Below, piece by piece: positions 3,228 through 13,288 of a stretch of 53,807 nucleotides of DNA. Source of the stretch: a virus (taxonomy: Duplodnaviria; Heunggongvirae; Uroviricota; Caudoviricetes); IMG/VR virus record IMGVR_UViG_2718217709_000003; one strand, given 5' to 3'. How positions within the stretch are numbered: position 1 is the first letter of the stretch; the number at the start of each line of letters is the position of its first letter. Position numbers and translations under genes: made by a program. The notes beneath the pieces were generated by a model. It searched no databases, had not been told where the DNA came from, and saw only the letters and a program-made list of their open reading frames with translations.

Positions 3228-4286
3228 ATGTCGGTTATGGGCGATTTAGCCATGAGGGCTAACGTCGCTCTTTCTCAGGGACCGGAAGCCTACAGTAAAT
3301 TCATTACTGACAACAAGGACAGGTTAAATCGCGTTGGTGCTAATGCTGACTGGATGATTCAGACAGGTATCCAGAATCCAGAGCAGCTATCACACATGCT
3401 GACTACTATGTCTCTCGGTGCGCTTGGACCAGAAAAGGCGTTTGCTGTTCAGGATAAGATGGCTGGTCGTGAAATTGACCGAGGCAGGCTGGCAGAGACA
3501 ATCCGCAGCAATCAGGCTGGTGAAGCACTTCAGGCGAGAGGGCAAAACCTTTCCTATCAGTCAGCAATGACTGGGCACAATATCGCAGCACAACGCTTGG
3601 CTCTGGATCAGCAAGAGTTCGGGTTTAAGATGCAGCAAGCGCAGGAAAAGGCTCAGCAGTTGATTAGTGAAGCACCTAAGCTGTCAGTAAACATGGAAAA
3701 AGGCATCGAGACGGCTGTAAACAATGCCACAGCATCATCAAACTCAGCCAATTCTATGAGTGCGCTTGCTCAACAGTTCAGAGCAGAAAAACCAACGACA
3801 GGTTTGTTCGGTAACGCACAGAACATGTTCGCAAAACTTACCGGAAGCGATACGACATTGCGTGATTTGCGCATCCGCCAAAATGCCCTTGTTAACAGTC
3901 AGGTTCTTAAATTCCTACCTCCCGGCCCAGCAACGGATAAAGACGTTGAGATCGTTCGGCAGGGTGCGCCAACTGACATGGATAACCCTGAGACGGTCGC
4001 AAGATGGCTTGATGCAATGGCAAACCTTGAGCGACGAAACGCGCAGTTTAATGAGTTTAAAGCTGAGTGGATGAGCGCGAATGGCAATCCTGGACAATCG
4101 CGTAATGGCGGTCAGATATTGGGGTTGGATGTTAAAAAAGGTGAATCATTGGGGAGTGCCGTTAAGCGGTATATGTCATTGAATACTGACGCAGCGCCAG
4201 CACAAGATTCGACACCTTCAGGAGAACCACGGAATCAGGTTGGATCATATACCTCAAAATCAGGCATTCAATTTACGGTGGAATGA
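3228..4286 (+). CDS. Hypothetical protein (352 aa); possibly a P22 gp20-like ejection protein
   Basis: Long ORF rich in Ala/Gln/Asn, translationally coupled (ATGA overlap) to the next ORF; lies upstream of the immI region and tailspike where P22-like phages encode ejection proteins. Product is inferred from position only. Confidence 0.4.
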
Positions 4287-6124
4287 TGAAAGTAACTGCA
4301 AACGGTAAGACATTTACCTTCCCTGATGGTACGAGCACGGAAGATATTGGAGCCGCCATTGATGATTATTTTGCTGGTCAGGTTGTTCAGCAACAAACAG
4401 TTAATCAGGCCAATAATGCACCAGTACGTGAAGAACCATCATTGATGCAACAAGCTGGCGATTGGCTCACTGGTGGTCAAAGTGCAGGGCAAATTGCAGA
4501 ACAGGCTGGTCGTGGTCTGGTAAACATACCATTTGACGTATTGCAGGGTGGCGCAAGTCTGATTAATGCAATCAGTCAGGGGCTTGGTGGGCCAAAAGTT
4601 TTGGATGATGTTTATCGTCCAGTAGACAAACCGACAGACCCATACGCACAAGCCGGTGAAACAATTGGTGGGTATTTAGTTCCAGGAGTTGGAACGGCAG
4701 GAAGCATGGCTATTGGATCGCTGGCAGAGGCCGCAAATCAGAAAGGCGATTTCGCACAAAATGCAGCTAAAAATGCCGGAGTTAACCTTGCCGCTCAGGG
4801 TGTTCTTTCCGCAGCAGCAAAGGGAATAGGGCGTGGAATAACGGCTATAAAAGGTGATATTGCGCCAGAAGTGGCGAAGAAAATTGCCACATCAGAATCG
4901 ATGGGCGTGACACCAATGACATCTGATGTTATCCCGCCGAAAAATGCTTTCACTCGCGGCCTTACTCAGGATGCCGAGGGGGCTTTGCTCGGGACGGGCT
5001 CAAAGCGAGCAGAGCAATATGCAACGCGGAGTAAGCTGGTAAGCAATTATTTTGACCGTTTTGGTGAGTACAACCCTGATGATGTGGTGAAATCTCTGAC
5101 CACCACGTTAAGGGGGCGGAAGGATGCCGCTGGCGCTGTTATCAATGACGTCACCAATAAAATGGGTAATGCCGCAGTTGATACCACAAATACCATGAAT
5201 GCTCTGAATACAGCGATCGCAAGACAGGAACGGCTTGGGACGTCTGCCAATCAAAGCCTGCTTACATCCTTGCGTAACCTACGTGAAGAATTAGCAAACC
5301 CTGCAACTGATTTGGATGTTACGTTTGATCTCTTGCGTCAGCACAGAACAGCATTTAGATCTAATGTTCAGGGAGATGCTATGGTCTTCCCCAACCAGGC
5401 AAAAGCAGCTACCAATATGGTAGAGAATGCAATGTCAAAAGACCTTCGTAACGCAGTTGCTAAAAACCTCGGTGCATCAGACGCAGCAAAATACCTTAAA
5501 GCAAATTCCGATTATGCAAACGTTTATAATAAGGTGCTTAATAAAAACATTGCCAACAAGCTCAACAAGGCAAGCAGTGAAGCCAGTCCTGAACTTATAA
5601 ATACCGTTGTATTAAGCAGAAAACCATCTGACGTGAAACGAATCTGGAGCGCACTGGATGATAAGGGGAAAGATGCTATGCGTGCAGCTTACGTCAGCAA
5701 AATAGCGGAAAAGACCGGGGACTCTCCAGCCAAGTTCATCACTGAAGTTAATAAGCTGAAATCTCAGTCAGGCGGTGAAATTTACAACACTATTTTTTCT
5801 GGAAAGCACATGAAAGAGCTTGATGCTCTTCATGAAGTTCTACAGCAAACAGCAAGGTCAGACACCGCAAATGTAGTAACTCAGACGGGGCAATCGCAAG
5901 CCAACAGGATAAGGACGATTGGCGCAACTGCGACCCTTGGCGTATCAATGGGGCTTGAGGCTGGTTTTGGTGCAATGATGCGCTTGTATGAGTCCAAAGC
6001 AGCAAGGAATATGCTTCTTCGTTTGGCAAACACCAAAGCAGGAACACCAGCCTATGAAAGAGCGATAAATAACGCTGCGAATGCCATCAGACCGCTGTTT
6101 GCTACTGAGGCAACACAGCAGTAA
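4283..6124 (+). CDS. Hypothetical protein (613 aa); possibly a P22 gp16-like ejection protein
   Basis: Long Ala/Gly-rich ORF, about the size of P22 gp16, in the matching position before the immI region; assignment is positional. Confidence 0.4.
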
Positions 6125-6148: not shown

Positions 6149-6538
6149 CTAACATTTTCTTTTTACTTTTCCAACAAAAGCTTTGGTTGAATCCATATTT
6201 CCATAACCGGAAATGGTTTTTGACATTAAAACTGTTCCAGTAGGATGTATTACCCATGAGTCGATAACGCGTTGAGTTTCGCCATTCGCGCCGATTCCTA
6301 TGATGGAGTTTTTAGACAATGCTTTGTAAGCCATGCCGCCCGCATCTGTCCCAGAATATGTGATGCTGGCATCTTCACCGTTTGTCTTAATGATGAATGT
6401 TCCACTAAAACCATCTTCTTCCGGATGGAAATTATTTCGTTCTGAATAGCTTATTCCGCGCATATCTCCAACGACCCAGCACTCTGCTGTAGCCCCAAAA
6501 GATATGAATAAGAACATAGCAGTAAGAAATTGCTTCAC
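6149..6538 (-). CDS. Secreted protein of unknown function (129 aa, N-terminal signal peptide)
   Basis: N-terminus MKQFLTAMFLFISFGATA looks like a Sec signal peptide; sits where P22-like phages carry sieA. Confidence 0.5.
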   Translation of the reverse strand: MKQFLTAMFLFISFGATAECWVVGDMRGISYSERNNFHPEEDGFSGTFIIKTNGEDASITYSGTDAGGMAYKALSKNSIIGIGANGETQRVIDSWVIHPTGTVLMSKTISGYGNMDSTKAFVGKVKRKC

Positions 6539-6655
6539 GCCAACCTCCTTAGTTTTGAGCAGGATACCATGAAAAAAGTAAACATCTTTTGCCTACTTCA
6601 CATTTGAATGGTTTGTCATTAGGATGTTTCCGGTTTTTTAAATATGGAAATTGAT

Positions 6656-7075
6656 ATGAAGAGGATTATTGGCGTCGTTGCTGGCGCTATATTGTTATCT
6701 GGGTGCGCAACTATTGTTGGTGACGAAACGCAGCTTGTGCAAGTGAACAGCAATCCTTCCGGTGCGAGCTTTAAGGTAAAAGACGAATCAGGCGTGATTG
6801 TTGCGCAAGGTAAGACCCCGCAAGGAGTAACTCTTGCCAAGTCAGATGGTAGTTATTTTGGCAAAAAGAGCTACCAGATCACTATGGAAAAGGATGGGTA
6901 CGAACCAGTTACCCTGCCAATCAAAGCCAATGCTAATGGCTGGTATATTGGTGGAAACCTTGTGTTTGGTGGGTTAATTGGTTGGCTTGCTGTAGATCCT
7001 TTTAATGGTGGGATGTATACCTTGAAGCCAAAAGAGGCAAACGCATCTCTTATACCATCAACAAAGCAAGACTAA
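6656..7075 (+). CDS. Lipoprotein of unknown function (about 139 aa)
   Basis: Lipobox LLSGC after a hydrophobic N-terminus (MKRIIGVVAGAILLSGC); followed by a strong intrinsic terminator. Confidence 0.55.
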   Translation: MKRIIGVVAGAILLSGCATIVGDETQLVQVNSNPSGASFKVKDESGVIVAQGKTPQGVTLAKSDGSYFGKKSYQITMEKDGYEPVTLPIKANANGWYIGGNLVFGGLIGWLAVDPFNGGMYTLKPKEANASLIPSTKQD

Positions 7076-7083
7076 TAAATAGG

Positions 7084-7108
7084 ACCCACCTTCAGGTGGG
7101 TTTTTTGT
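7084..7108 (+). terminator. Rho-independent terminator after the lipoprotein gene
   Basis: GC stem cccacc-ttcag-gtgggt followed by a T run (ttttttg). Confidence 0.6.
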
Positions 7109-7343
7109 ACAAATCCTTCAGCGTATCAAATACCATCTTCTTAACAAGCTCTGACTGCTCATCAGCGAGTCGTTCTGCATCGTCGCGATATCCAGTCACA
7201 GGCGATGGTTTTGATAGAGCATCTTGGACGATTTGTAACAACTCGGAGTTCATTGATCTCCCATTCGCCTCCGCCCTGAATTTTAATTTCTCCCTTACTT
7301 CCATAGGCATACGGAAGTTAAAGTGCGGATCATCTCTAGCCAT
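7092..7343 (-). CDS. mnt: Mnt repressor (ribbon-helix-helix), P22 immI region
   Basis: 83-aa protein MARDDPHFNFRMPMEVREKLKFRAEANGRSMNSELLQIVQDAL... matches P22 Mnt as I recall it. Confidence 0.85.
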   Translation of the reverse strand: MARDDPHFNFRMPMEVREKLKFRAEANGRSMNSELLQIVQDALSKPSPVTGYRDDAERLADEQSELVKKMVFDTLKDLYKKPT

Positions 7344-7433: not shown

Positions 7434-7595
7434 ATGAAAGGAATGAGCAAGATGCCGCAGTTCAATTTGCGGTGGCCTAAAGAAGTATTGGATTTGGTCC
7501 GCAAGGTGGCGGAAGAGAATGGTCGGTCTGTTAACTCTGAGATTTATCAGAGAGTAATGGAAAGCTTTAAGAAGGAAGGGCGCATTGGCGCGTAA
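7434..7595 (+). CDS. arc: Arc repressor (53 aa)
   Basis: [53 protein letters not shown]; the ORF track extends it upstream, but the ATG at 7434 gives the canonical 53 aa. Confidence 0.85.
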
Positions 7596-7663
7596 AGTTG
7601 AAGCCCCAACTGCGGGAACAGTCAGGGCTTCGGTTGTCAGTAAATCCGTGGAGAAAAACCAAC

Positions 7664-8566
7664 ATGAATAGTATAGCAATTTTAGAAGCAGTGAACACCT
7701 CTTATGTACCATTCAACGGTCAGCAAATTATCACCGCCATGGCTGCCGGAGTTGCATATGTTGCGATGAAGCCAATCGTTGAAAACCTTGGAATGAGCTG
7801 GTCAACGCAGCAAACAAAACTCATGAAGCAGATTAGCAAATTCAACTGTGTTCATATGAACATGGTTGCCGCTGATGGGAAGCTTCGTAAGCTACTCTGC
7901 CTTCCTTTGAAGAAGTTAAATGGATGGCTGTTCAGCATCAACCCTGAGAAAGTTCGTGCTGACATCCGTGATAAACTGATTCAGTACCAGGAAGAATGCT
8001 TTACTGTACTGCATGACTACTGGACAAAGGGAAAGGCAGAAAATGCACGTAAGAAAACATCTGTTGATGACAGGACTCCGCTTCGTGATGCTGTAAATAT
8101 GCTAGTCAGCAAAAAGCATCTAATGTACCCAGAAGCTTATGCAATGATTCATCAGCGTTTCAATGTGGAAAGTATTGAAGAGCTTGATGCATCTCAGATA
8201 CCGCAAGCCGTAGAGTACATCCACAGGGTAGTGCTTGAAGGTGAATTTATCGGCAAACAAGAGAAGAAAACCAACGAGCTTTCTGCAAAAGAAGCAAACA
8301 GCCTTGTATGGTTATGGGATTATGCCAACCGCTCACAGGCATTATTCCGCGAACTGTATCTGGCGCTAAAACAAATTCAATCGAACTATTCCGGCAGATG
8401 CTACGACTACGGTCATGAATTCTCGTATGTTATCGGAATGGCGAGAGACGTTTTAATAAACCACACACGAGATGTTGATATTAATGAGCCAGACGGACCA
8501 ACGAATCTTTCCGCATGGATGAGACTTAAGAATAAAGAATTGCCTCCTTCAGTACATAACTACTGA
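7664..8566 (+). CDS. ant: Antirepressor Ant (300 aa)
   Basis: Directly downstream of arc as in P22 immI; start taken at MNSIAIL, which gives 300 aa. Confidence 0.7.
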
Positions 8567-8666: not shown

Positions 8667-11168
8667 ATGACAGACATTACAGCCAATGTTGTAGTAAGCA
8701 TGCCTTCGCAACTCTTCACTATGGCGCGTTCTTTTAAAGCCGTAGCCAATGGCAAAATTTATATCGGTAAAATTGACACTGACCCGGTAAATCCTGAAAA
8801 CCAGATTCAGGTCTATGTGGAGAACGAAGACGGCTCTCACGTTCCTGTTGCACAGCCAATCGTCATCAATGCCGCAGGGTATCCAGTATATAACGGACAG
8901 ATTGCCAAATTCGTTACCGTGCAAGGCCATTCTATGGCTGTTTATGATGCGTATGGTGCTCAGCAGTTCTATTTTCCTAATGTGCTGAAGTATGATCCAG
9001 ATCAACTACGTGCACAACTTTTAAGCCCATTGGATGGACTTGGAGATAACCTTGTTAACGTAAAGCAACCAGGCATGTCGTCAGACAGAAGAACTGTTCA
9101 TGATAAAATGATTGAGTCAATCAGCATAGCTGATTACATTGTAAATGACAGCAGCATAACAAATGCAATTATAAATGCCTTAAGTTCAAACGTAGGAACT
9201 ATAATTATTCCTCCTGGTGAGTTTGTTGCAAACCCGTCAATAAAAGATGTTTCTGGATTATTTAAGTTGTTTTCAAGATGTGAGTTAAGGGGGCGGCTTA
9301 CAGTTAATATTCCTCCTGGCTATTCATATTTTACAGAAAAGACCATTGTTAGTTGTATAGGCGCCCATAATTTGACAATTAAGGGTGTCAAATATGAAAC
9401 ATCAATAACATCACTTGTATCAGTTGCTGGTTCGAAGAAAAATTATTCTGTAACGATATCGCTTTCTGATGCTTCAAATGTTTCTGTTGGTGATTATATC
9501 ATAATTAGACATGACGTTTCAGGAACCGGTGCATATCACATGCACTGTGGAGGATGGAAAGTACTGTCAGTTTCTGGAGCAAATGTTACAGTAAATAATA
9601 CTTGCCATCTTGATAACTTCCCTGAATCGACATTAACTGGAGGATCGGTATCTATAATTAAGTCGGTTCTCAAATATACTGGTTGTGATGGTTTTGCCGT
9701 GTCAGGTGGTGATTGTATTAATACAATTGATGGTGTAGCCATTGTTGGTGATTACTCGGTAGCAGAATCTATAGGCACAATTGGAGCGCATGGGTTCACT
9801 ATTGCCACGCCTGATATAACAATTGATGAACCAGATCCATCAAATAAAGTATTTGACATGTCTGGTAATTTAGCAATTGGTCCTGATATTGTTATATCAG
9901 GGTGGGGGGAGCAGGGATTTGTTGCTTCTGGTCGAGCAGGTGTTGTATGTAATTTTATAGCTTCATCATCTAATAGAAAGCGCGGTATTTACGCGGAAGG
10001 AGCTCATATCAGAGGAAAATTCATGGTTTGCTCTGGTAATGGTGAAGATGGGATTATATCTGATATCGGTGGTGCGATTCAGGCCAACGGATCTGTATGC
10101 TCAGGAAATGGGTTGAATGGGTTCTGGTCATTTAATAACAGTGAGTTAAGCGCGCCAAATGGTGTTGCGTGTGGTAACTCAACAAATGGTATTGAGGCCA
10201 GGGCGTTATCAAAAGTTAATTTCGAAAACGGTAGATCATATCTAAATGCCAGAAATGGAGTATCAGCGTCATATGGTGGAAACATAGCTTTCACTGGTGG
10301 AACATCTAGCGATAATGTAATAGATGGTATCTATTCTGTTTACAACGCAACAGTAGCAGCTAATAATGCAAGTTCGAAAAACAACAGAAGGTATGGTGTT
10401 AACTGCACAGATTCTATGATAGTTATGACTGGTAGCGGAGATGTGTCAGGAAATGTTGCTGCAAACTATATAGATAACGGTGGCGGGGTAATTATAGATA
10501 CGGAAGGAGAGGTGATTCCTGTTAATGCACATCCGCAGAGAAATCTCATGCTGAGGAATGCAACAACTCTTTCTGGTTGTGATATTTCACCTTCATCAAT
10601 TGGTGATATTACCATTTCGTTAAAAAGCTCTCCTTCTGCAGATTTAAGTGATCGTTATGTTTTTAAAGCCGATGGAACTCAGCATCCATCTGGTGATGCA
10701 ACCCAAAATTTGGGGCGCGCGAGCAACAGATATAATGTTGGATATTTTGCCGGAGGTACGCAATCAAGTTCTGATGCAAGACTCAAGACAGCAGTTAGAG
10801 GTATGACCGCTGATGAAATAAATGCCGCAATGAAGATTGCAGAAGTTCTAGGTTTTTGGTCTTGGATTGATGATGAATCTAAAAGACTGCATGCTGGAAC
10901 GACTGTTCAGAAAGTTATTGCAATACTTGAGGAGAATAATCTTGATTGGAAAAAATACGGATTTATTGGTTATGATGCTTGGGATGATGAATTTGAATAT
11001 GTTACTGAAATTGATGAATTTGGAAACTTAGTTAAGAATGGAGAGATGAAGTTGATTAGAGCGGCTGGTGATCTTTGGCAGTTTAGAGATCAGGAGCTTG
11101 ATAGATTTATAATGAGAGGTCTTTTCGAAAGAATTAGAAAGCTTGAAGAATCGTTATACCAAAGATAG
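8667..11168 (+). CDS. Tailspike (833 aa): P22-type head-binding N-terminus, beta-helix receptor domain, C-terminal intramolecular chaperone
   Basis: First ~110 aa ([59 protein letters not shown]...[15 protein letters not shown]) match the P22 gp9 N-terminus; central SGNG/GxNG repeats typical of a parallel beta-helix; C-terminus ...[11 protein letters not shown]...GFWSWIDDE... resembles the peptidase S74 autochaperone. Confidence 0.8.
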
Positions 11169-11282
11169 TAATATCAATGGGTATAATCATTTCTATATAA
11201 AAAACAGATAACCAGCAAATATCACACAAAGCTTTGCACTGGATTGCAAGGCTTTGTGCTCTTCGATAGTGGTTAAGGCGGA

Positions 11283-11351
11283 TCACTCCACCTTTTCATC
11301 AATCCAGTCCGCCCACCATTGCATCATTTCTCTGCGCTTATCGTGGCAGAT
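11283..11351 (-). pseudogene. 3'-terminal fragment of a P4-family integrase gene
   Basis: Last ~22 codons ...SICHDKRREMMQWWADWIDEKVE* resemble the conserved C-terminal tail of P4-type integrases; upstream codons are not integrase-like. Confidence 0.45.
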
Positions 11352-11931
11352 AGATGCCTCACTATCACACGGTGATGGTTCATTACTGGTTTGCATAATG
11401 GATAGAGAACTGCGGATAAAAGATATCCCAAAACCCCAAAATCTCATCTTTAGGGGTTGCAGAAAGGGAGGCGTGAACAAATACCTGCGCATGAAAACGG
11501 AACTAGTCCAGATGTGATGTTTGTGGTGATCACATACATCATTAACGATGCTCGTTATGGTGAGTTTGATGACTACCCGCTGAAGTAAAAATTGTGTTGT
11601 GTACCAAATTGCGTACCAAACTAAAATCACAAATCATGAAGCCCTTGTTCATGGCGGTTCTCAGTGGTGTTGCGCGTAATCGTGAAACAAAAAGGTAGAT
11701 TGTTGCTTACCGTCATTCATCATTAGGTTAAATCCGTTATTTCTGCTGTCTGCCAGAGTATCAAATATCACCGTGCTAATCAGCTTTAGCGCGACAATTT
11801 GGCAGCGAGTGACAACAGATCATGTCAGATAAAAATGAGATAGTAGTCACATTTTCTTGCACTTTATTCCAGCCAGTTCATAAGTATTTCCGTAAAAAGA
11901 ACAGCTATTTGAAACACCTGAGGGTTTGCTG

Positions 11932-11957
11932 TTGAAACGCCGTCTTATTATTGCTGC
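11932..11957 (+). pseudogene. dacD: dacD 5' fragment (first ~9 codons, TTG start), cut by IS2
   Basis: Encodes (M)KRRLIIAA, then IS2 begins; the rest of the signal peptide (SLFVFNLSSGFA) resumes at 13289. Confidence 0.7.
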
Positions 11958-11968
11958 TGGATTTGCCC

Positions 11969-12874
11969 CTATATTTCCAGACATCTGTTATCACTTAACC
12001 CATTACAAGCCCGCTGCCGCAGATATTCCCGTGGCGAGCGATAACCCAGCGCACTATGCGGATGCCATTCGTTATAATGCTCGAACGCCTCTGCAAGGTT
12101 CTTTGCTGCCGTTAACCCGTCTGGTTTGGGCATGATACTGATGTAGTCACGCTTTATCGTTTTCACGAAGCTCTCTGCTATTCCGTTACTCTCCGGACTC
12201 CGCACCGCCGTGTTCTTCGGTTCAAGTCCCAACATCCGGGCGAACTGGCGTGTTTCATTAGCCCGGTAGCATGAACCATTATCCGTCAGCCACTCCACTG
12301 GAGACGACGGAAGATCGTTGCCGAAGCGGCGTTCCACCGCTCCCAGCATGACGTCCTGTACTGTTTCACTGTTGAAGCCGCCGGTAGTGACCGCCCAGTG
12401 CAGTGCCTCACGATCACAGCAGTCCAGCGCGAACGTGACACGCAGTCTCTCTCCGTTATCACAGCAGAACTCGAACCCGTCAGAGCACCATCGCTGATTG
12501 CTTTCTTTCACGGCCACTCTGCCTGTATGTGCCCGTTTCGATGGCGGTACAGCAGGTTTTCGCTCAAGCAACAGCGCATTCTGGCGCATGATCCGGTAAA
12601 CACGTTTGGCATTGATCGCAGGCATACCATCAAGTTCTGCCTGTCTGCGAAGCAGCGCCCATACCCGACGATAACCATACGTGGGCAGCTCTCCGATAAC
12701 ATGGTGTATACGGAGAAGCACATCCGTATCATCAGTGTGACGACTGCGGCGGCCATCCATCCAGTCATCGGTTCGTCTGAGAATGACGTGCAACTGCGCA
12801 CGCGACACCCGGAGACAACGGCTGACTAAGCTTACTCCCCATCCCCGGGCAATAAGGGCGCGTGCGCTATCCAC
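11969..12874 (-). CDS. insD: IS2 transposase InsD (OrfB, 301 aa)
   Basis: IS3-family DDE transposase ORF within the IS2 boundaries. Confidence 0.85.
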
Positions 12875-13197
12875 TTTTTTGCCCGTCCATATTCAACGGC
12901 TTCTTTGAGGAGTTCATTTTCCATCGTTTTCTTGCCGAGCAGGCGCTGGAGTTCTTTAATCTGCTTCATGGCGGCAGCAAGTTCAGAGGCAGGAACAACC
13001 TGTTCTCCGGCGGCGACAGCAGTAAGACTTCCTTCCTGGTATTGCTTACACCAGAGAAATAACTGGCTGGCTGCTACACCATGTTGCCGGGCAACGAGGG
13101 AGACCGTCATCCCCGGTTCAAAGCTCTGCTGAACAATTGCGATCTTTTCCTGTGTGGTACGCCGTCTGCGTTTCTCCGGCCCTAAGACATCAATCAT
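12832..13197 (-). CDS. insC: IS2 InsC (OrfA, 121 aa)
   Basis: [40 protein letters not shown]... HTH protein; overlaps insD in the usual frameshift arrangement. Confidence 0.85.
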
Positions 13198-13288
13198 CTG
13201 TTCTCCAATGACTAGTCTAAAAACTAGTATTAAGACTATCACTTATTTAAGTGATACTGGTTGTCTGGAGATTCAGGGGGCCAGTCTA

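Follow-up and report, generated by a model that had tools for sequence, protein, structure and literature searches.

The interval between genes 16 and 9 of P22-like phages was described in 2008 as a highly variable "ant moron", in which mnt, arc, sar and ant are accompanied by variable genes (Villafane et al., PMC2629481). In P22 it holds sieA, which is expressed in lysogens, is carried by only about a third of sequenced P22-like phages, and for which 85 bp of upstream sequence is enough for function at single copy (PMC10883804). A second gene, hex of phage 434, was named for "heterologous exclusion", as P22 is excluded by Salmonella lysogens carrying imm434 unless hex is mutated (Shkilnyj et al., PMC3564112). 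Here, two genes at positions 6149–7075 of IMG/VR virus record IMGVR_UViG_2718217709_000003 (53,807 nucleotides, the whole of which is referred to as the window) are compared with these systems. The window opens with ∼11 kb from the right end of a P22-like (Lederbergvirus-type) prophage that lies in an E. coli chromosome. An initial annotation had presented the two genes, designated here as ORF-A and ORF-B, as a divergent pair encoding envelope proteins at the superinfection-exclusion position, and as candidate exclusion or surface-modification morons. That the region is an ant moron, and that ORF-B is a hypothetical gene within it, is already known. We find that ORF-A belongs to the 434 Hex family and occupies the P22 sieA slot, with the same leader and start codon, and that the two genes are accessory cassettes of the variable ant moron that come and go independently and form neither an operon nor a two-part system. 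The features of the two genes are as follows.

6149–6538, minus strand: ORF-A, a 129-residue Hex-family protein (PHROG 2651) with a GTG start and predicted export.
6485–6538, minus strand: predicted signal peptide of ORF-A, codons 1–18, MKQFLTAMFLFISFGATA, with predicted cleavage before E19-C20-W21.
6539–6585, minus strand: leader in common with P22 sieA, positions −1 to −47, 44 of 47 bases identical.
6597–6625, plus strand: weak sigma-70-like site, TTCACA-17-TAGGAT, with 9 of 12 consensus matches, which could drive ORF-B.
6656–7075, plus strand: ORF-B, a predicted 139-residue lipoprotein (PHROG 6823), the same gene as epsilon34 gene 15.
6692–6706, plus strand: ORF-B lipobox LLSGC, read from the sequence, with Cys17 the predicted lipidated residue and Ala at +2.
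6728–6934, plus strand: predicted beta-sandwich domain of ORF-B, residues 25–93, transthyretin/PEGA-like.
6935–7018, plus strand: glycine-rich hydrophobic segment of ORF-B, NGWYIGGNLVFGGLIGWLAV, then a near-invariant DPFNGGMY.
7082–7108, both strands: bidirectional intrinsic terminator between ORF-B and mnt.

The arrangement first described was recovered in all its elements. A 129-residue signal-peptide protein is present on the minus strand and a protein with the lipobox LLSGC on the plus strand, diverging from a 117-bp interval (6539–6655) and flanked by a gene-16 homologue on one side and mnt on the other, which agrees with the reported location between the ejection genes and mnt. The terminator said to follow the lipoprotein gene is indeed strong, having a 9-bp GC-rich stem, a tetraloop and a U6 tract (−14.5 kcal/mol, z = −3.0 as compared to shuffled sequences). 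Behind mnt, on the opposite strand, it folds as well (−12 kcal/mol), and the same terminator is annotated in epsilon34.

The proposed sieA position was borne out for ORF-A, which agrees with P22 sieA in strand, in spacing after gene 16 and in a 47-nt leader. The stop codon of ORF-A lies 24 bp past that of gene 16, and that of sieA 22 bp past, both genes being on the minus strand. The bases shared ahead of the two starts include the Shine-Dalgarno sequence and lead into a GTG start codon in both genes; in ORF-A, AAGGAGG (6544–6550) is found 5 nt upstream of the GTG. RefSeq uses a later ATG (6149–6517, 122 residues), but homologues begin at the GTG position, and only the 129-residue form has a basic residue, K2, before the hydrophobic core. 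The leader is also common to epsilon34 gene 14. It holds an extended −10-like element, TGgTATCCT (6561–6569), as well as the −10 part of the putative PsieA, and is a candidate promoter region for ORF-A.

When viral contigs were searched for the exact 36-nt core of this leader, 79 contigs were recovered, in which the core precedes at least ten unrelated ORF families. These are listed here with the number of contigs in which each was found.

24 contigs: Hex-like proteins of the ORF-A type.
13 contigs: 109-residue proteins with an N-terminal anchor and a coiled coil, family 1.
12 contigs: 109-residue proteins with an N-terminal anchor and a coiled coil, family 2.
8 contigs: SieA.
6 contigs: 75-residue proteins with two hydrophobic segments.
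6 contigs: 62-residue proteins with two hydrophobic segments.
3 contigs: 149-residue proteins with one hydrophobic segment.
2 contigs: 99-residue proteins with a signal peptide.
2 contigs: 68-residue proteins with a signal peptide.
1 contig: a 106-residue protein with an N-terminal anchor.

Nearly all of these families have a hydrophobic N-terminus, either signal-peptide-like or membrane-anchor-like, and eight of the ten were flagged by a strict 19-residue Kyte-Doolittle window with a mean of at least 1.6. By our own estimate, roughly one-quarter to one-third of random genes would be expected to have such a hydrophobic segment, far below the proportion seen here, and this excess indicates that the site behind the leader receives envelope-protein cassettes. 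Of its occupants, SieA alone has been studied. The slot also holds gp13 of phage Gally (2391–2906 of the examined stretch), an uncharacterised 171-residue lipoprotein of PHROG 6067.

Both genes behave as morons, as had been proposed, being present in some and absent from other P22-like prophages that are otherwise syntenic, and both are probably prophage accessory genes. The idea that they act as a pair did not survive comparison with other genomes. A megablast search against phage genomes divided the region in two: Emek and ST-35 match the ORF-A half only, and epsilon34, Gally and 720R6 match the ORF-B half only. ORF-B was present in 22 of 80 viral loci with ORF-A, and ORF-A in 21 of 80 loci with ORF-B, where the loci are prophage predictions with redundancy and the counts refer to contigs, not to independent events. 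Because the distributions of the two genes among P22-like prophages are independent, both being present in only about a quarter of the loci, they do not constitute a unit. An inventory of the variable region instead revealed two cargo positions. The first, adjoining gene 16 on the minus strand, is filled by ORF-A, by one of several hkcB-like membrane/coiled-coil proteins, by the lipoprotein Gally gp13, or, in P22, by SieA; the second, on the plus strand, is filled by ORF-B, by a P63C-domain protein, or by a Panacea-antitoxin pair. None of the 160 loci examined contained both SieA and ORF-A. The pair present in phage Emek (orf149/orf161; 3808–4681 of the examined stretch) comprises a Panacea-domain (SocA-like) antitoxin and an overlapping partner gene, and is probably a toxin-antitoxin pair.

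The family to which ORF-A belongs is that of phage 434 Hex. ORF-A matches PHROG 2651 with an E-value of 2.9e-61, its residues 14–129 aligning with profile positions 1–116 of 117, and 434 Hex matches the same profile with an E-value of 1.4e-58. At 27% full-length identity, tblastn detected the gene directly downstream of cI in phages 434, Sf6 (gene 38), HK446, HK633 and Sf101. An exhaustive profile search of 1.84 billion proteins yielded only 220 Hex-family clusters at 50% identity, nearly all of them single-domain proteins of 120–140 residues. The position after cI is a property of the Hex prototype and not of the protein family, whose members occupy several settings: in Klebsiella prophages they overlap the stop codon of cI, in an Enterobacter prophage the gene and cI are convergent, in Aeromonas it belongs to a variable island, and in Serratia the context is plainly chromosomal. 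Profile searches of Pfam, NCBIfam and PADLOC gave no match for ORF-A, and profile searches of PDB sequences gave no homologue for either the Hex family or the ORF-B family.

Several features of ORF-A point to export. Its N-terminus, MKQFLTAMFLFISFGATA followed by ECW, is divided into n-, h- and c-regions as in a signal peptide and has A-T-A at positions −3 to −1, and its C-terminal end is K-R-K-C. Across the family, a hydrophobic N-terminal core is found in 127 of 131 diverse full-length members, and 124 of these 131 have a cysteine within the last eight residues. Among 61 diverse members, the only invariant residues are two cysteines, one after the predicted cleavage site and one at the C-terminus, which correspond to C20 and C129 of ORF-A. 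In other prophages, an unrelated signal-peptide-like sequence, MKLIIAMAFLVFSFSVSA, is found on ORF-A, with a mature part that is ∼97% identical, and the mosaic junction coincides exactly with the border of signal peptide and mature part. The signal peptides differ by pS 0.8 and pN 0.42; in the mature part, pS is 0.11 as compared to a pN of 0.012, indicative of purifying selection. Because the N-terminal sequence has been swapped while its physicochemical character was kept and the mature part conserved, the N-terminus of ORF-A fits a real signal peptide. AlphaFold2 predicts an all-beta, up-and-down eight-stranded barrel (mean pLDDT 90.6) in which the two cysteines lie on the first and last strands, and in this model a barrel-closing C20–C129 disulfide is plausible. 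Taken together, the signal peptide, the invariant terminal cysteines and the predicted barrel argue for a periplasmic protein. Fold searches with the ORF-A model returned generic eight-stranded barrels only. Roles as a lysozyme inhibitor or as a lipocalin-like ligand binder were also considered for ORF-A and found no specific support.

ORF-B carries a different kind of export signal. Its N-terminus, MKRIIGVVAGAILLSG followed by C, contains the lipobox L-S-G-C with the cysteine at residue 17, which marks ORF-B as a lipoprotein, and by the E. coli rule the Ala at +2 (not Asp) should direct it to the outer membrane via Lol. Judged by these signals, both products would be exported envelope proteins, as the initial annotation had stated. 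A 143-residue ORF beginning at 6644 adds four residues, but this start is used neither by homologues nor by RefSeq, which both begin at 6656 (139 residues). ORF-B matches PHROG 6823 over its full length (E 6.1e-86), and the protein is 98% identical to gp15 of epsilon34, which is encoded in the same place and ahead of the same terminator. In 73 homologues C17 and A18 are invariant and G16, T19, V21 and G22 nearly so, and nine members of the family match Pfam LPAM_1. Selection has been stringent, with up to 25 synonymous and 0 non-synonymous differences between prophages (dN/dS <0.1).

The AlphaFold2 model of ORF-B (mean pLDDT 79) consists of a confident beta-sandwich (residues 25–93), a low-confidence helix (residues 95–112), the DPFNGGMY motif and a short hairpin folded back against the sandwich. 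The hydrophobic segment averages ∼1.4 by our own Kyte-Doolittle estimate, which is under the usual threshold for a transmembrane segment. The most conserved parts of the family are the post-cysteine sequence C-A-T-I-V-G-D-x-T-Q and this hydrophobic segment, and since conservation is concentrated at both membrane-proximal elements, the two appear to form one functional surface. Fold matches were limited to generic sandwiches of transthyretin/CnaB/PEGA type. Against Pfam PEGA (PF08308), ORF-B scored 17.6 bits, short of the gathering cut-off of 20.8, and weak matches were present in 19 of the 73 homologues; the other profile match, to LEPBI_I2678, was likewise sub-threshold. No defence-system match for ORF-B was found with PADLOC.

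ORF-B homologues are distributed well beyond P22-like phages. Those with 68–71% identity lie between the tail chaperone and tape-measure genes of lambdoid prophages of E. coli (ED1a type) and Proteus, and one with 78% identity lies between tail genes I and J of Pseudescherichia-type prophages, directly upstream of J. A homologue with 81% identity occupies a non-phage chromosomal context in Enterobacter, another adjoins murJ in Photorhabdus, and homologues with 51–60% identity occur in Pasteurellaceae, Halomonadaceae, Shewanella, Betaproteobacteria, Mariprofundus and others. Across homologues in 80 species, no neighbours were conserved beyond the genus level. In every phage context seen, ORF-B is co-oriented with the late operons. 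A terminator follows the copies of Proteus and Pseudescherichia, and another precedes the Proteus copy; none was found after the ED1a-type copy. In Gally, the DNA in common starts only ∼10 bp before the ORF-B start codon, so that in some cases the ORF-B cassette comes without its own promoter. The ED1a prophage (CU928162; 7900–16400 of the examined stretch) has three separate inserts in its tail operon, namely the ORF-B homologue between T and the tape-measure gene, a porin gene between M and L, and, after L, a ClpP-like protease with Arc-like and Ant-like genes.

From this distribution, ORF-B is best explained as a bacterial envelope gene that would have been captured by several temperate phages. 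As the model and the conservation suggest, its acyl anchor and glycine-rich hydrophobic segment would keep the beta-sandwich flat against the membrane. In a lysogen, ORF-B would most likely do as its chromosomal relatives do, acting on a conserved envelope component and remodelling or stabilising the envelope, and this activity would probably be supplied to the lysogen as a conversion function. The initial annotation had held that homology to housekeeping periplasmic proteins unrelated to phage would refute its reading, and ORF-B comes close to this case, as its family occurs mostly in non-phage chromosomal contexts across the Proteobacteria; it falls short of it in that at least three further types of prophage carry the same gene as a moron. 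A benefit by way of reduced phage or colicin entry is possible but not indicated.

The strongest competing explanation is that ORF-B is a dedicated exclusion lipoprotein which, like Cor of phi80 and N15 or Llp of T5, inactivates an outer-membrane receptor or blocks a step of entry at the outer membrane. A predicted outer-membrane lipoprotein present in at least four kinds of temperate phage would suit such a role, as would its place directly upstream of the host-specificity gene J in one prophage type, its presence in the ED1a-type prophage within a tail operon that also has a porin moron, and the moron-like terminator directly downstream of several copies. Outside the signal peptide, however, ORF-B is not homologous to Cor or Llp; it matches no defence-system model, and it is carried by phages that differ in their receptors and tail types. 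Its family is also mostly chromosomal, outside phages, and extremely conserved, which fits a housekeeping partner better than a particular phage receptor. Given this chromosomal breadth and slow evolution, a receptor block of the Cor/Llp type is unlikely, and weaker than a conversion function as an explanation of ORF-B. The earlier designation of both genes as exclusion candidates is thereby divided: it gains from the family of 434 Hex in the case of ORF-A, for which exclusion is plausible, and loses in that of ORF-B, which shows no likeness to known exclusion lipoproteins and for which it is unproven.

For ORF-A, the published work on Hex offers an alternative to a role in the envelope. ORF-A might act as 434 Hex is reported to act, in the cytoplasm, stabilising lysogeny by preventing the RecA-stimulated autocleavage of repressor, with no envelope exclusion. 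The hex gene is co-transcribed with cI, and over-produced full-length Hex is toxic; a stable fragment, sHex, comprising 61 residues (Glu43–Asn103 of a 158-residue ORF), inhibits, in vitro, the cleavage that RecA stimulates in both the 434 and the P22 repressor (PMC3564112). Deletion of hex raises spontaneous induction in a recA-dependent manner, and sHex partly complements the deletion (PMC3564112). ORF-A is a member of the Hex family and lies in a P22-like prophage, as this alternative would have it. The words "signal", "periplasm" and "membrane" are absent from the main text of the same paper (PMC3564112). The 158-residue Hex ORF starts 24 codons upstream of the start in the current annotation, which gives a protein of 134 residues, and Glu43 of sHex is Glu19 of the 134-residue protein, which is the residue directly after the predicted signal-peptidase site (between ANS and ECW). 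This coincidence suggests that Hex is processed and exported, and raises doubt as to whether the cytoplasmic activity of the fragment is its native one. The active sHex is moreover a 61-residue piece of the predicted barrel, without the signal peptide, and the signal peptide and terminal cysteine pair found throughout the family argue for export. ORF-A is also placed in the sieA slot, unlinked to the repressor gene, and Hex-family members exist in chromosomes with no prophage repressor nearby. A cytoplasmic role of the published kind is therefore considered quite improbable for ORF-A.

Two further explanations can be set aside. Unimolecular spanins of the T1 gp11 type are outer-membrane lipoproteins with a C-terminal inner-membrane anchor, whose gene replaces Rz/Rz1 in the lysis cassette. 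ORF-B has a similar architecture, with a lipobox, a beta-rich middle and a hydrophobic segment near the C-terminus, and it is co-oriented with late operons in all phage contexts seen, as would suit a lysis protein made late and fusing the two membranes. This role was rejected as very improbable, in that ORF-B lies outside any lysis cassette, its family is widespread in bacterial chromosomes without phage genes, and its hydrophobic segment is borderline as a transmembrane helix and near-invariant, unlike a generic anchor; epsilon34 carries ORF-B in the ant-moron region, and the epsilon34 paper places Rz/Rz1 homologues in the lambdoid lysis module, with no lysis role given to the ant moron (PMC2629481). 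That one or both genes are decaying passengers without function here is extremely unlikely and is rejected by the selection analysis, for although the contents of the region change rapidly and take many forms (PMC2629481), intact copies of both genes are present in dozens of independent prophages and show a strong excess of synonymous over non-synonymous change, and the Shine-Dalgarno sequence and terminator are conserved. Full-length PHROG matches together with purifying selection likewise identify ORF-A and ORF-B as real genes, not chance ORFs.

The preferred account of ORF-A is then that of a periplasmic exclusion factor. It would be made in the lysogen from the sieA-type leader, exported by Sec, cleaved before E19, and oxidised in the periplasm to a closed eight-stranded beta-barrel with a C20–C129 disulfide. 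In this form it would exclude incoming P22-like phages as they cross the envelope, at the stage of the ejection-protein conduit or of cell-wall penetration, and would serve as a soluble alternative to the inner-membrane SieA. Export, cleavage and fold are proposed because of the sequence, the conservation within the family and the confident model, and the exclusion role can be inferred from the sieA position together with Hex genetics.

Several observations weigh against this account. The sole biochemical study of Hex assigns it a cytoplasmic role, the protection of repressor from RecA-stimulated cleavage (PMC3564112), and the block of P22 by Hex could be abortive infection rather than a block of entry. 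The −35 part of the putative PsieA falls outside the common 47 nt, and a sigma-70 consensus scan of the region found no promoter for ORF-A. The sigma-70-like site ahead of ORF-B is at chance level, with 4 such sites in the region as compared to 3.4 expected in shuffled sequences, and expression of either gene from the prophage can at most be inferred. Members of both the Hex family and the ORF-B family also occur in chromosomes away from prophages, so that a purely anti-phage role is not required for either, and the very slow evolution of ORF-B is unlike that of exclusion proteins engaged in an arms race. An exclusion function of some kind for ORF-A falls slightly short of an even prospect. 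The whole account, with independent cassettes, ORF-A as a periplasmic exclusion factor and ORF-B as a captured bacterial envelope lipoprotein, is judged to stand at about even.

The surroundings of the two genes are those of a P22-like prophage, with the following neighbours.

4283–6124, plus strand: gene-16 homologue, P22 ejection (DNA-transfer) protein (PHROG 770 "DNA transfer protein", E 6.6e-278; RefSeq "P22-gp16 family phage DNA ejection protein"), the final late-operon gene ahead of the variable region.
7092–7343, minus strand: mnt (Pfam Arc 3.9e-30, Repressor_Mnt 7.2e-19).
7434–7595, plus strand: arc.
7596–7663, minus strand: sar antisense RNA, complete, between arc and ant (Rfam RF00262, 95.6 bits).
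7664–8566, plus strand: ant.
8667–11168, plus strand: tailspike gene.

The 1-kb stretch around ORF-A and ORF-B is 100% identical to many complete E. coli genomes. Both genes are present, at 99.8–100% identity, in E. coli O111:H− strain 11128 and in strain A35. The immI region of the prophage (mnt, arc, sar and ant) is apparently intact. The tailspike combines a P22-type head-binding domain (Pfam E 1.4e-66) with a C-terminal Peptidase_S74 "chaperone of endosialidase" domain (residues 702–757), and its receptor-binding part differs from that of the otherwise identical prophages of strains A35 and EC6622, so that it appears to be an exchanged cassette. Immediately beyond the tailspike gene (∼11200–16000), annotation of identical genomes gives an IS2-family element followed by the chromosomal genes dacD, sbmC and yeeA, and no integrase or gtr genes are present on this side (about 11200–16000).

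In the papers searched, we did not find a statement of the identity between the ORF-A and sieA leaders or of the variety of envelope proteins behind this leader, of the membership of ORF-A in the Hex family or evidence of Hex-family export, or of the spread of ORF-B across the Proteobacteria and its repeated capture by phages. Nothing on either protein came from searching the literature by accession number or for prophage lipoproteins with a PEGA domain. It is tentatively proposed, and with more doubt than confidence, that the short sieA leader is a hypervariable cassette site whose at least ten unrelated membrane or exported proteins are each an alternative block of envelope crossing; that the Hex family, including ORF-A and 434 Hex, consists of secreted, disulfide-closed periplasmic barrels that act outside the cytoplasm to exclude P22-like phages; and that, if so, the cytoplasmic, RecA-related activity published for a Hex fragment is not native. 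The unrelated proteins preceded by the leader provide a ready set of candidate exclusion proteins for existing SieA assays. If the Hex family is exported, a long-known and poorly understood lambdoid gene in the "rex" position would have to be revised, and this position would be linked to the sieA slot. ORF-B represents an unusually conserved family of putative proteobacterial lipoproteins that has no Pfam model or known function and has repeatedly been captured by temperate phages, and the phage copies offer a handle on the role of the family. These findings refine the known picture of prophage morons and exclusion genes and do not introduce a new kind of system.

Among described systems, P22 SieA (PHROG 7745) is the closest to ORF-A in setting, sharing its position, strand, leader, GTG start and predicted place in the envelope. 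The two proteins have no sequence similarity (BLASTP E 0.99; different PHROGs). SieA is a polytopic inner-membrane protein, whereas ORF-A is predicted to have a cleavable signal peptide and a soluble beta-barrel. Members of the SieA family are similar to SieA types A–C, including the motif FxRYPxEAxxFNK, and have three or four transmembrane helices; ORF-A shows neither property, having a single N-terminal hydrophobic stretch followed by an all-beta soluble domain. Its relation to SieA is one of positional equivalence, not of family membership. By family, the closest system is 434 Hex and Sf6 gene 38 (PHROG 2651), which resemble ORF-A in their signal peptide, in the E-C-W start of the mature protein and in the C-terminal cysteine. 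434 Hex is expressed from the prophage and named for its exclusion of P22 (PMC3564112). In the PRM transcript it follows cI, at the "rex" position, and the stop codon of the one gene overlaps the start codon of the other, whereas ORF-A is in the late region after gene 16, behind the sieA leader; the mechanism published for Hex is cytoplasmic. The type of mechanism proposed for ORF-A is that of T4 Spackle, a small periplasmic exclusion protein with a signal peptide that inhibits the tail lysozyme of the incoming phage. For ORF-A there is no evidence of homology to Spackle or of a lysozyme target, the comparison of folds having produced generic barrels only.

For ORF-B, Cor (phi80, N15 and HK022) and Llp (T5) are small phage lipoproteins, predicted to be in the outer membrane, that provide a possible model of how it works. 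No homology to them was detected in ORF-B, the Cor profile (PHROG 1119) matching residues 1–20 only, that is, the signal peptide, with an E-value of 0.0034. Cor and Llp are not known outside phages and each has one receptor target, whereas the ORF-B family is mostly chromosomal and pan-proteobacterial. In epsilon34, the same gene (gene 15) is paired with an hkcB-like membrane protein and not with ORF-A. No Pfam match to Bor or Lom was found in ORF-B at E ≤0.1. In layout, ORF-B nevertheless comes closest to the class formed by lambda bor, lom and the lambdoid porin morons. These are expressed in lysogens as conversion genes, as ORF-B may be; like ORF-B, they are envelope genes that were inserted within late operons or next to them, run in the same direction and in many cases have a terminator of their own.

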